A stretch of 42,651 bases of DNA from a virus (lineage: Duplodnaviria > Heunggongvirae > Uroviricota > Caudoviricetes): positions 1-42,651 of the IMG/VR virus record IMGVR_UViG_2700989535_000001; one strand, written 5' to 3'. A model generated the notes under the pieces. The model had not been told where the DNA came from, did not search any database, and was given only the letters and a program-made list of their open reading frames with translations. A program made the translations under genes and the position numbers. Positions 7,313-10,289 of this stretch are shown here, in pieces. Position 1 is the stretch's first letter, and each line of letters opens with the position of its first letter.

Positions 7313-7471
7313 TTATGGCGATACCAGAGAGCTTTCTGCGTGTACATGCGTCTCTGTAACTTGCTCTCCTTCACTGTGGTTGCAAGTGACATGAATATCT
7401 CCTTCGTTACCGATTAATTCTTTCATCTGACGAATGAATTCTTCGTCTGACCAGTTATCTGTAAAACTCAT
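7313..7471 (-). CDS. Hypothetical small acidic protein (52 aa)
   Basis: ATG overlaps the kil-like stop (ATGA). An alternative overlapping 45-aa ORF (7255..7392) has a stronger AAGGAG RBS; which one is real is unresolved. Confidence 0.3.
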   Translation of the reverse strand: MSFTDNWSDEEFIRQMKELIGNEGDIHVTCNHSEGEQVTETHVHAESSLVSP

Positions 7472-7620
7472 TTCCTGCGATACCACGGAAGGTTGATAGC
7501 TGATTTCATCGCTTTATTTGCTTCAAGCCACATTTTTGAATCACCAATAAATCTGGCTATTACTGCTTTGTTTTGTGCAGCACGAAGCATCTGGTGATTG
7601 ATGGCTATTTCATTGCGCAT
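7468..7620 (-). CDS. Kil-like small protein (host division inhibitor candidate)
   Basis: 50-aa ORF; motif ARFIGDSKMW resembles my recollection of lambda Kil (ATFIGDEKMF); lies immediately downstream of the cIII-like gene. Confidence 0.4.
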   Translation of the reverse strand: MRNEIAINHQMLRAAQNKAVIARFIGDSKMWLEANKAMKSAINLPWYRRK

Positions 7621-7739
7621 AACGCCTCCAGTTGTTTCTTTGCTGCTCTGATTAATTGTTTAACTCGGCGTGATAATTCAGATTCGTGCGGGTAGAAAGC
7701 GGACATGACGCCGCTACCCGCGAGCTGAAAGTGCATCAT
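7605..7739 (-). CDS. CIII-like protein (FtsH inhibitor family)
   Basis: 44-aa ORF from an internal Met with AAGGAG RBS; ...PHESELSRRVKQL... resembles the lambda CIII core (recalled). Confidence 0.5.
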   Translation of the reverse strand: MMHFQLAGSGVMSAFYPHESELSRRVKQLIRAAKKQLEALCAMK

Positions 7740-7804
7740 GGGTAACTCCTTATATTTGATTGCATAACGAAAACGCCTCGAGTGAAGCGTTATTGGTATG
7801 CATA

Positions 7805-7829
7805 TAAAAAAGCCCTCACACTGGAGGGC
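7805..7829 (-). terminator. tL-like intrinsic terminator between the N-proximal accessory genes and cIII
   Basis: Minus-strand GCCCTC-cagtgt-GAGGGC hairpin followed by a T7 run. Confidence 0.6.
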
Positions 7830-7922
7830 AAAGAAGATTTCCAATAATCAGAACAAGTCGGCTCCTGTTTAGTTACGAGCGACATTGCTCACATAGCAGA
7901 CTCGCAAATCTGCTATAGGTGC

Positions 7923-8084
7923 TTATTCGCATCGCATGACAACATCAAATTTTTCGAGATTACTTTGTCGCAACAATCCTTCTTCTACGCGGTCAGCTTT
8001 TCTATAATTATCAAATTCGAAATGTTTGATTACTTCTTTCGTTTCTCGCTCTATAACTTCAACAATGTATTTCTTATTCATCAT
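7923..8084 (-). CDS. Hypothetical small protein (53 aa)
   Basis: ORF MMNKKYIVEVIERETKEV...; AT-rich; no recognisable family. Confidence 0.35.
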   Translation of the reverse strand: MMNKKYIVEVIERETKEVIKHFEFDNYRKADRVEEGLLRQSNLEKFDVVMRCE

Positions 8085-8144
8085 TCTTCCCCAAGATCTT
8101 TGCTAATTGCTGACTGTGCTTTCGATACTTCATCAGGATAATGG

Positions 8145-8537
8145 TCACTCCAGCTTTGCTTGTATGCCTTGTTTAGCATCGCTCAGGGGGATATCTCCTT
8201 CAGTTCTGACCATTCGCCTTAATACTTTCCTTAAGTCGATGTAAAGTTGAAGGTCTCCATTTGCTGCGGCATCAGCCATTTTTTGCCTGACAAGCAGTAA
8301 TGTTTCATACGGCTCAATAAGAATATCGTCATGAGTAATTAGGTGAAGCGTTGCCGCATCAACTATTCCTAGAGCTGCGCCAAGTATCAAAAATTCCCTG
8401 CTATTTTTGTCGCATGAGGAGATAAGCGTATTTAGCGCATATCTAATATTCTTTATAGCTGTTGTTAATGCTGCAATTTCTTCTATGGCGTCTTCTCCAA
8501 TGAGCTTTTTAAGCTCATATTTTTCTTCCTGACCCAT
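8145..8537 (-). CDS. Hypothetical protein directly downstream of N (130 aa)
   Basis: Start (MGQEEKYELKK...) 3 nt after the N stop; predicted soluble and helical; AT-rich; no recognisable family. Confidence 0.55.
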   Translation of the reverse strand: MGQEEKYELKKLIGEDAIEEIAALTTAIKNIRYALNTLISSCDKNSREFLILGAALGIVDAATLHLITHDDILIEPYETLLLVRQKMADAAANGDLQLYIDLRKVLRRMVRTEGDIPLSDAKQGIQAKLE

Positions 8538-8539
8538 AA

Positions 8540-8812
8540 TTACCTCGCCGTCAGTTGTTTTGATTTCCGGTAGCCTGCCGCGTAAAGAGCTACGTTTGGC
8601 AGGCAAATACTTCCACTGCGTTCATCTTCTTCCTTACAGCGAAGGCTTCCGAGTGATGCTGCTTTATCTGCTCTGACGCAACCAGAGAGCTTTAGCGCAA
8701 TTTTTCGCGCCAGTCGCTGTTCTTGCATTGCCTGCTCACGTTGAGCCTGTCTGCGTGCTCTGCGGCGATTTCTGGCGTTATCGTCAGCCAGATATGTAAT
8801 GACTACTGTCAT
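8540..8812 (-). CDS. N-like antitermination protein
   Basis: Arginine-rich motif near the N-terminus (NARNRRRARRQAQREQ) like the lambda N ARM; first gene of the leftward operon from the operator region. Start chosen at the internal Met MTVVITY. Confidence 0.6.
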   Translation of the reverse strand: MTVVITYLADDNARNRRRARRQAQREQAMQEQRLARKIALKLSGCVRADKAASLGSLRCKEEDERSGSICLPNVALYAAGYRKSKQLTAR

Positions 8813-9014
8813 GTTGACCTCCGATGATTGACTTTGGCGGTGACGTGACGGGGGGAGGGAGGTTAACTCCCTGATGCTGTCGCGCTGCTGCACTTCACAT
8901 CACCCCAAAGCCAACTACTCTTTGGTTCCCGCATTTCGGCGGGACAATCCCATCAATGTTAAAGAGCCTGCCAATCTGTTCCGTTTGGCTACCAGCGTCC
9001 TGCTGATGGCTAAA

Positions 9015-9056
9015 GAATACTGTAGGTATTTTATTGTGTAAATACCCAAGGTATTT
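9015..9056 (-). promoter_or_regulatory. PL/OL region: two operator dyads (AATACTGTAGGTATT, AATACCCAAGGTATT) overlapping a leftward promoter
   Basis: Dyads of the AATAC-N5-GTATT type spaced 25 bp apart, same motif as upstream of cro; minus-strand -35 TTTACA and -10 TATTCT with a 17-bp spacer. Confidence 0.6.
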
Positions 9057-9186
9057 ATTTTTGGTGAAATAATGATAAGCAAATGAATACAAAGGATATT
9101 TATTTTTTCGGTGTCTGCTTGTTCAGTGTTTTTTATGCGGGATATGTGAAGTGGATCCCGATAGCTATTGCTGCCGGGATTATGGT

Positions 9187-9555
9187 TTAGTCAGCGAAGG
9201 TTAAGACGAGAATTACCTTAATGATGTCTGCTACAACAGACACGGCCATAGATAAACCAAAGACAATCCAAGCCATAGAGATGTCTTCACTACCATCGTA
9301 TAGAGTTCCGTAATCACTGGTGTAAGGCGTAAATGTCGCGCCTTGATACAATAGGTATAAGCTTGATCCATAGAGGATAAATGCAGATATCCCTTGTATT
9401 GCTATGATCACCAGAATCATGAAACGAGCTGATCTATGCGCCCAAGCCTGGCTTATTTTTTCTGATAGAGATTTCGCAATAAAAGCATGCGCTAAGCCGT
9501 AAATTGTCGAGATTGCCAACATCCCAAAAAAGCTTGCTATAGCGGTTCCAACCAT
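9187..9555 (-). CDS. Small integral membrane protein (3 predicted TM helices) coupled to cI
   Basis: ATG at 9555 with AAGGGG SD, 18 nt after the cI stop (track ORF uses a TTG overlapping the cI stop); three hydrophobic segments of about 25 aa. Confidence 0.6.
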   Translation of the reverse strand: MVGTAIASFFGMLAISTIYGLAHAFIAKSLSEKISQAWAHRSARFMILVIIAIQGISAFILYGSSLYLLYQGATFTPYTSDYGTLYDGSEDISMAWIVFGLSMAVSVVADIIKVILVLTFAD

Positions 9556-9572
9556 AAGCGCCCCTTGCGTGA

Positions 9573-10289
9573 TCAAACCAGCCTTAGTTTTGTCTCAATT
9601 GCAACGCCTATAATCTTGCAGTTTCCATTGATAGGCACGAGAGGCCATGCAGGATTAAGTCCCTTGAGGTATTTATTTCCGCCGTCGATTATCAGCTTCT
9701 TGAATGTTGCTTCGTTAGAGTCAGAAAGTTTTGCTATGACCAAGCTGCCGTTGATCGCCTCCCTTCCGGTATCGAAAAGAACGAATGTTCCTTCTGGAAT
9801 GCTTAACCCAACCGGTGCCGTCATTGAATCACCTTCCACTTTAAGCCAGAACGCATTACCTTGAATATGCGCGTCAGACTCAAGCCAAACATCTATGTCT
9901 TTAATGGTGTATGGTTCGCATGCTTCACACCACGAGCCAGCCTGGATACTGCTTAACACCGGATACCTCTTTCCTGCTCTGTATTCCCCTGCATACCTTA
10001 CGTTGGCATCGCTCTTAAGGCTTTCTGCCTGTTCTGCAACCTTGGCAGCAATTGACTGGCTAAAATCAGCAATTGAGACTTGCAACAATCGTGCAAAACC
10101 AGATGCAACCTCAACGTTTAGCGCGTTTCTGCCATTAAGATAATGCCCTACCGCTCCTTGGGTGATACCCAGTTCATCAGCGATTGAGTATTGGGTTATT
10201 CCCAATTCTTTCTTTTTTGACTCATACAAAGCCTTAAGCCGCTTAGCGTCTTCGAGCTGTTCTGTCGTCAGTGATTTTTTATTTTCCAT
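9573..10289 (-). CDS. cI: CI-type prophage repressor (HTH plus LexA-like S24 peptidase domain)
   Basis: Recalled similarity to lambda CI throughout (TQEQLEDA.RLKA.YE.KK.ELG; FWL.VEG.SMTAP; FKKLI.D); divergent to cro across the operators. Confidence 0.9.
   Translation of the reverse strand: MENKKSLTTEQLEDAKRLKALYESKKKELGITQYSIADELGITQGAVGHYLNGRNALNVEVASGFARLLQVSIADFSQSIAAKVAEQAESLKSDANVRYAGEYRAGKRYPVLSSIQAGSWCEACEPYTIKDIDVWLESDAHIQGNAFWLKVEGDSMTAPVGLSIPEGTFVLFDTGREAINGSLVIAKLSDSNEATFKKLIIDGGNKYLKGLNPAWPLVPINGNCKIIGVAIETKLRLV

Follow-up and report, generated by a model that had tools for sequence, protein, structure and literature searches.

We analyzed a window of 42,651 nucleotides (nt), positions 1 to 42,651 of the IMG/VR virus record IMGVR_UViG_2700989535_000001, focusing on the interval between the antiterminator gene N and cIII (positions 7,805 to 8,537), where a first-pass annotation had described an uncharacterized gene cluster. 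On the alignments presented below, this segment is a mosaic of two unrelated modules and a dead gene fragment, not a functional cluster. We favor, with a probability of about 0.55 that mainly concerns anatomy and expression logic, the reading that a P22-like Escherichia coli prophage of HK620 immunity carries this interval as an accessory segment in the promoter-proximal part of its pL operon. The window corresponds to a P22-like phage or prophage whose closest relatives are IME10, Sf6, and mEpX2, and its immunity region is of the HK620 type, with cI 100% and hkaS 98% identical. All the elements from N to cIII lie on the minus strand. These include three open reading frames (ORFs) of 130 amino acids (aa) (hkaQ; 8145–8537, with its ATG at 8537–8535), 32 aa (8081–8179), and 53 aa (orf53; 7923–8084), the 32-aa ORF overlapping the end of hkaQ on one side and the start of orf53 by 4 nt (ATGA) on the other. 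ORF, Pfam, hairpin, and GC evidence confirmed that these ORFs, a terminator upstream of cIII, and a marked AT richness are all present as first described, with a GC content of 0.355 to 0.44 across 7900–8500, compared to 0.515 to 0.545 in N and 0.50 to 0.515 in the recombination genes.

The idea of one coherent cluster fails at a recombination joint located at 8182–8184, where the two unrelated modules meet. In a four-way DNA alignment, the window follows HK620 until CCCCTGA (8183) and then Sf101 from GCGATGCTAAAC, with only 1 to 4 nt common to both sides. A match to Stx1a-converting phages likewise stops at 8183. Because the switch from HK620 to Sf101 and the end of the Stx1a phage match fall at that same position, the 12 extra residues of the 130-aa protein (SDAKQGIQAKLE followed by a stop; 8145–8183, minus strand), which stand in place of the final TK of HK620 HkaQ, are best read as foreign DNA translated out of frame, that is, an out-of-frame reading of the neighboring fragment. 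Canonical HkaQ has 120 residues and ends in GDIPLTK in 31 of 41 IMG/VR loci; the window allele has neither this length nor this end, and the 130-aa form is found in 7 of the 41. Residues 112 to 130 have a predicted local distance difference test score (pLDDT) below 50 in the AlphaFold2 (AF2) model, and the tail is shortened by a stop codon in a relative (L023). The chimeric arrangement is not a singleton, since hkaQ, the fragment, and orf53 occur together, complete, in 10 complete Escherichia coli genomes.

The fragment itself spans 8081–8182 (minus strand) and consists of the last 32 to 33 codons of an XkdD/Y8K6-family gene, aligning to the C terminus of Sf101 gp34. Over the final 33 residues of this 83-aa protein, identity with the 32-aa ORF is 85%, the ATG of the ORF corresponds to a methionine inside Sf101 gp34, and the ORF matches the parent family phrog_1273 (RefSeq name "XkdD/Y8K6 family phage-associated protein") with E = 0.011 and only at positions 69 to 101 of 103. 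Members of this family, such as Sf101 gp34 (orf123) and mEp213 gp49, have ∼90 to 100 aa and finish, as the remnant does, in ...AISKxLGEE, which overlaps the start of orf53. In contrast, the N-terminal two-thirds, with the FKGTxGxW motif and a central LIAAAPDLLEAL, is absent from the 32-aa ORF. The remnant is also frameshifted in a related contig (L016). By these comparisons, what had been described as a possible 32-aa ORF is a dead 3′ gene fragment, not a gene. Among 83 orf53 loci (79 from IMG/VR plus the window, mEp213, and three relatives), ∼65 have a full-length parent of 89 to 102 aa, with FKGTxGxW...LIAAAPDLLEALQ...AISKALGEE, coupled to orf53 through an ATGA overlap. In a prophage of E. 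coli USDA-ARS-USMARC-50748 (L136), the same interval upstream of cIII also includes, directly before the XkdD/Y8K6 gene and orf53, a gene (548–1171) annotated as an "Nmad5 family putative nucleotide modification protein," and orf53 is unannotated in the RefSeq record.

The segment was assembled as follows. Module 1 is N plus hkaQ, in which the last codons of N (GCGAGGTAA) carry the ribosome-binding site and look like a linker for recombination, while module 2 is what remains, on the 3′ side, of a pair in which an XkdD/Y8K6-family gene is ATGA-joined to orf53. A near-homology-free joint at 8182–8184 fused hkaQ codon 118 to the middle of the XkdD/Y8K6 gene, with three consequences: the last two residues of HkaQ were replaced by a 12-residue tail, a dead 32-codon fragment was left behind, and orf53 remained intact. 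The anatomical steps of this fusion can be seen in the DNA itself. For annotation, this means that the "cluster" should be split into two independent modules and a pseudogene fragment, and that the meaningful units are canonical hkaQ and the XkdD/Y8K6-orf53 pair, not the chimeric arrangement of the window.

The first module is clearly related to coliphage HK620. N (8540–8812, minus strand) encodes a 90-aa antiterminator of the HK620/phage 21 type (Pfam N_peptide, 3.2e-16; phrog_271), which is 93% identical to HK620 N. The 130-aa ORF is 98% identical over 119 aa to HK620 HkaQ (AAK28865), a protein also present in HK630, HK629, and Stx1a-converting phages, and it matches phrog_7374 ("function unknown") with 3e-79 over positions 1 to 120 of 120. 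Its HK620-like core, residues 1 to 118, corresponds to 8184–8537 (minus strand; 98% identity). The two genes share the immunity region, the 2-nt distance from N, and the upstream Shine-Dalgarno/ATG context, but HK620 hkaQ is flanked by a convergent hkaP and the terminator tL1, whereas in the window it is followed by the gene fragment and orf53. The N stop codon is a TAA at 8542–8540, and the hkaQ Shine-Dalgarno sequence, GAGG, lies within the last N codons (GCGAGGTAA). In-frame extensions upstream of the ATG (153 aa from a TTG, or the 148-aa form of RefSeq style) were rejected: the frame is open there by chance, across the end of N, and the homologs P0003 and P0021 start at the equivalent of 8537. 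The ratio of nonsynonymous to synonymous substitution rates (dN/dS) between hkaQ and P0003, a homolog 59 to 64% identical, is ∼0.20.

HkaQ is acidic, with an isoelectric point of 5.1, and contains the motif IVDAATLHLIxHDDxLxEP (residues 58 to 76), which is invariant across three HkaQ clades. Its AF2 model is all helical, with a mean pLDDT of 69, and a Foldseek search against the Protein Data Bank (PDB) gave no match with E below 0.79. The description of a soluble helical protein therefore holds for the helices and is less secure for solubility, since helix 49–67 (FLILGAALGIVDAATLHLI), which carries the invariant Asp60 and His65, is hydrophobic, with a Kyte–Doolittle 19-residue mean of 2.03. 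This central invariant Asp, the presence of a His, and the lower score (1.49) of the equivalent helix in the short HkaQ clade lead us to favor a buried helix over a membrane span.

Orf53, the intact part of the second module, matches phrog_6949 (a family of unknown function) with 3.4e-40, residues 2 to 53 aligning to positions 1 to 52 of 52. It is 96 to 100% identical to copies in phages, i.e., mEp213 gp48 and ATN92755 of APC_JM3.2, and differs from the latter only by the first methionine. Relatives are found in prophages of Escherichia, Atlantibacter, and Cronobacter, always in the N-to-cIII interval. Like orf53 of the window, mEp213 gp48/orf149 is the final gene before a conserved linker and the tL2 terminators, but it is usually translationally coupled to a full-length XkdD/Y8K6 gene, of which the window keeps 32 codons. 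The window orf53 therefore has no full-length partner joined to it by the ATGA overlap. Its AF2 model is a confident beta-beta-alpha-beta mini-domain (pLDDT 93), and the PDB yielded no significant neighbor. We rejected a kinship of orf53 with P22 gp17, since the E value of 0.12 in a comparison against 14 sequences is not significant.

The reading that these ORFs are decaying, nonfunctional leftovers of recombination describes well the 32-aa ORF and the 12-residue tail, and it could draw on the nonsense and frameshift alleles of orf53 (E23*, G36*, and the frameshift in L019), which show that this gene is sometimes lost even when the partner gene is intact. For hkaQ and orf53, however, this reading is highly improbable, and the selection analysis argues decisively against it: besides the dN/dS of 0.20 for hkaQ at 59 to 64% identity, comparisons of orf53 with relatives 75 to 87% identical across the three genera gave a proportion of nonsynonymous differences (pN) of 0.08 to 0.17, with a saturated proportion of synonymous differences (pS) of 0.66 to 0.95, and the orf53 fold is predicted with confidence. 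We also considered that selection on orf53 might be relaxed after loss of its partner and rejected this possibility, since recent polymorphism is similar in both contexts, with synonymous:nonsynonymous ratios of 3:4 with the partner gene and 10:17 without. By these measures, hkaQ and orf53 are real genes under purifying selection, conserved as coding sequence in relatives, which the 32-aa ORF is not.

The position of hkaQ immediately after N is strikingly constant. The gene starts 2 nt after N in the window, in almost every one of the 41 IMG/VR loci whose upstream N is readable, and in the P0003 loci; divergent homologs (41 to 64% identity) are also directly 3′ of N or of an N-like gene, P0021 and P0025 belonging to the latter group, so that every HkaQ member follows N or an N-like gene. 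This linkage, which holds for five or more N alleles and for three divergent clades, is what one would expect if HkaQ were functionally tied to N, for example by stabilizing N against Lon or by modulating the antitermination complex, and the RefSeq product name "antitermination N domain protein" points the same way. Yet, HK620-type N genes without hkaQ do occur, as in mEp213, where the second N is followed by a phrog_5305 gene, and elsewhere N is followed by ral. Furthermore, unrelated genes use the same slot: in mEp213 (second N), L012, and L015, the same N end (GCGAGGTAA, 2 to 4 nt, and ATG) leads into genes that are unrelated and have no known function. Since this slot is shared by unrelated genes, the conserved 3′ end of N is sufficient to explain the N–hkaQ linkage, and we regard a functional tie to N as unlikely. 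No N-family model in Pfam or NCBIfam (PF25694, N_peptide; PF26859, Phage_N_antitermin) matches HkaQ, including its 148-aa form (P0002), which is why the RefSeq name, which in some records goes with a 148-aa form begun at an earlier ATG within N, looks like an annotation artifact that may propagate.

What the N alleles preceding hkaQ share, across several cI immunity types, is only the C-terminal ∼21 residues CLPNVAxYAAGYRKSKQLTAR (8540–8605 in the window), and on the other side the genes 3′ of hkaQ vary among loci (hkaP, ral, orf53, and others). We therefore read the slot after N as a cassette swap site set by the conserved 3′ end of N, which looks like a recombination linker combined with a shared ribosome-binding site, and not as a sign that HkaQ and N function together. 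A related observation is that some lambdoid pL operons have tandem N-type antiterminator genes split by accessory genes. In mEp213 (L003), these are an HK244-type N (678–1010) and an HK620-type N (2163–2435), while loci L005 to L007 combine a PF25694 N with a PF26859 N.

The expression logic follows from the promoter and the terminators. The early-left promoter pL was mapped to 9007–9042 (minus strand) by a 96% alignment to the HK620 region annotated as such, within which we found a promoter-like site (TTTACA-17-TATTCT) at 9042..9014, and the N-utilization site nutL was mapped to 8927–8968 (minus strand) by alignment to the HK620 annotation. At the other end, two intrinsic terminators lie upstream of cIII (7605–7739, minus strand; Pfam cIII, 2.2e-30), which marks the downstream limit of the interval. 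The first, tL2A-like (7803–7829, minus strand), has a 6-bp stem with five GC pairs (7829..7812; GCCCTC-CAGTGT-GAGGGC) and then TTTTTTATAT. The second, tL2B-like (7765–7791, minus strand), has an 8-bp stem (7791..7772) and then TTCGTTATGC. By position, both match tL2A and tL2B of the HK620 annotation, which places tL2B just upstream of cIII. A hairpin-plus-T scan of the minus strand of 7400–9300 detected only the terminators at 7829 and 7791, and none between pL and 7829. In HK620, tL1 lies inside hkaP, and both hkaP and the tL1 region are absent from the window. Because no intrinsic terminator was detected between pL and 7829 and HK620 tL1 is absent, hkaQ and orf53 are probably cotranscribed with N before the first intrinsic terminator. 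In our scenario, N, HkaQ, and Orf53 would be coproduced within the first minutes of infection or induction, with no need for N antitermination, and would be silent in a repressed prophage. Genes in the slot after N and upstream of the first terminator would thus encode the earliest proteins of a lambdoid phage.

This predicted expression pattern bears on the proposal that the genes are morons, expressed from the prophage and protecting the lysogen by exclusion or defense, like SieB or Rex. The block is AT rich and sporadically distributed, and the region often holds exclusion genes, all of which would suit such a role. However, both genes are on the pL-transcribed strand downstream of N and coupled to upstream ORFs, promoter-like sites are no more frequent than expected (3 found vs. 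3.6 expected from shuffled sequences), and no match was found in PADLOC, making this proposal very improbable.

Between orf53 and the first terminator is a noncoding linker (7863–7922, minus strand) with an 11-bp hairpin at 7892–7917. It is 92 to 97% identical in the P22-like Salmonella phages L, ST64T, and ST160, despite different flanking genes; in these three phages, the linker sits after a pentapeptide-repeat gene. The 176 nt around the hairpin have a folding z score of −4.65, and an Rfam scan of 7400–9300 gave nothing real and no family for the hairpin. This conserved stretch could be where RNA is processed, or it could act as a linker for recombination.

The interval lies where the first-pass annotation had placed it, i.e., at the position between N and cIII that is occupied by ral in lambda, Sf101, and phage L and by sieB in lambda, and its statement that the ORFs do not resemble Ral or SieB was borne out. 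None of the three ORFs had a relevant Pfam match at E ≤ 1, BLASTP against three Ral (lambda, Sf101, and L) and three SieB proteins gave nothing below E = 3.5, and no Ral was among the best 12 BLASTP hits. Similarly, no ORF matched PF14163 (SieB), a model that detects SieB of L010 at 1.6e-14. The remote homology and structure searches suggested at the outset were also carried out: NCBIfam gave nothing informative, PADLOC-DB gave no family at E ≤ 1, sequence searches of the PDB with single sequences and profiles gave nothing informative, and no significant PDB fold match was obtained. "Uncharacterized" is thus accurate for function, although the two long ORFs belong to named families (hkaQ/phrog_7374 and phrog_6949) that are themselves uncharacterized.

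The likeness to Ral (of lambda, P22, L, and Sf101) is one of position in the N-to-cIII interval, similar small size, and early pL expression. In sequence, the proteins are not similar, HkaQ is a helical protein of twice the Ral size, and orf53 belongs to another predicted fold class. Since ral and hkaQ are found together in some loci (L040, L041, and L043), they are not simple alternatives. As for SieB/Esc (lambda and P22), lambda sieB adjoins the 3′ end of N and SieB genes are convergent neighbors of short HkaQ-clade genes, but SieB is a membrane protein of the PF14163 family encoded on the strand opposite to pL with its own promoter, while the three ORFs match none of this and are on the pL strand.

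This neighborhood raises the possibility that HkaQ is an Esc-like antidote that shields an infecting or induced phage from SieB-type abortive exclusion, whether encoded by its own phage or by resident prophages. In the short clade, P0021, P0025, and P0026 are all convergent with a Pfam-SieB gene, the 3′ ends overlapping or ∼30 nt apart; among HK620-type loci, ∼16 of 41 have hkaQ facing a convergent hkaP, whose product is annotated as a putative exclusion protein; and the most hydrophobic helix of HkaQ might touch a membrane protein. Against this, lambda sieB abuts N with no hkaQ present, so that the adjacency may be positional only, HkaP is not detectably a SieB homolog, and the window, like many other loci, has hkaQ without SieB or HkaP. 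We consider such an antidote decidedly unlikely. For similar reasons, an ancient hkaQ–sieB pair was rejected, as HkaP is not a SieB homolog and lambda sieB adjoins N anyway. At L005:4430–4714, and also in L006 and L007, the hkaQ homolog P0003 has a different convergent neighbor, a 94-aa GhoS-like gene (PF11080, 29.3 bits with a cut-off of 21; phrog_8894) that overlaps the P0003 3′ end by 18 nt.

Returning to the accessory-segment reading, both proteins would be small, nonenzymatic-looking accessory factors whose most likely mode of action is to bind a protein of the host or of a rival phage. Our best guess, held with low confidence, is that HkaQ and orf53 may be nonessential conflict or host-takeover proteins. 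This expectation is set by their neighbors, since ral, SieB, a P22 gp17-like gene, and orf184, the trigger of gop-beta-cII, are found around them. That the role might be specifically in counterdefense or counterexclusion is tentative, and we lean somewhat against it. A bolder version, which we regard as rather unlikely, is that HkaQ represents an unrecognized class of immediate-early lambdoid protein in which a putative metal or ligand site formed by the cluster D60/H65-x3-H69-D70-D71/E75 would disarm an immunity factor of the host or of a prophage (e.g., of the SieB type), and that, independently of this, the XkdD/Y8K6 protein and orf53 would work only as a pair.

Published data are relevant mainly to the second module. 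ATN92755 is UDP0149 (orf149) in the sequence list of Silas et al., and orf149 was among the 200 accessory genes expressed in ECOR strains (Silas et al. 2023, bioRxiv 10.1101/2023.04.06.535777, Supplementary File 3). The same screen also took orf123 (Sf101 gp34) and orf184 (mEp213_045, the trigger of gop-beta-cII), and its authors regard the interval as an accessory region that contains ral (bioRxiv 10.1101/2023.04.06.535777). The 200 genes do not include HkaQ. For orf53, the anti-restriction or exclusion role suggested by its position gains no support from this screen. For HkaQ, we found no functional study in the literature, including by accession number or product name, and the sole paper mentioning it is one in which the hkaP/hkaQ intergenic region served as an insertion site (PMC4506075). 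Both genes are already catalogued as "function unknown" in a recognized accessory hotspot, and current concepts are unchanged.

Several points weigh against the reading we favor. Expression is deduced from a simple scan, and Rho-dependent termination or RNA processing at the conserved hairpin may intervene. The conflict role of either protein is something we infer. In the Silas et al. screen, which scored conditional lethality and phage sensitization, neither orf149 nor orf123 is mentioned in the main text (bioRxiv 10.1101/2023.04.06.535777), and therefore no strong single-gene phenotype was reported, which would be explained if the two, tested singly, function only as a pair. Finally, the HkaQ model is only moderately confident (pLDDT 69), the protein might, with lower probability, be located in the membrane, and the invariant D60/H65/H69/D70/D71/E75 cluster could be a metal site or that of an enzyme, not of a simple binder.

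Both genes are sporadically distributed, and the HkaQ family is very small. Among 5,426 complete E. coli genomes, hkaQ is found in 96 and orf53 in 90. A word-indexed search of 5.8 billion proteins recovered no more than 5 clusters for HkaQ and 13 for orf53. A profile hidden Markov model search of 1.8 billion representatives returned seven HkaQ hits, of which P0021 (Symbiopectobacterium) was the only new true relative, and a second HkaQ profile search gained only P0025 and P0026. The eukaryote-like repeat protein P0020 and P0023, another repeat protein, which carries an "IIPHDDHLVE" motif, were among the seven hits of the first profile search but were rejected as repeat-summed chance matches. 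HkaQ is present on Stx1a-converting phages, and many O26:H11 enterohemorrhagic E. coli (EHEC) genomes (e.g., strain 11368) carry hkaQ at 99% identity. If HkaQ acts in prophage induction or phage–phage competition, it would be relevant to Stx1a-converting phages and O26:H11 EHEC.

A last observation concerns the other side of pL, where HkaS, a 129-aa protein encoded at 9187–9576 (minus strand) between cI and pL and 98% identical to HK620 HkaS, occupies the position of lambda rexAB. It has strongly hydrophobic helices and belongs to no Pfam family, and it is a candidate for a lysogen-expressed function.

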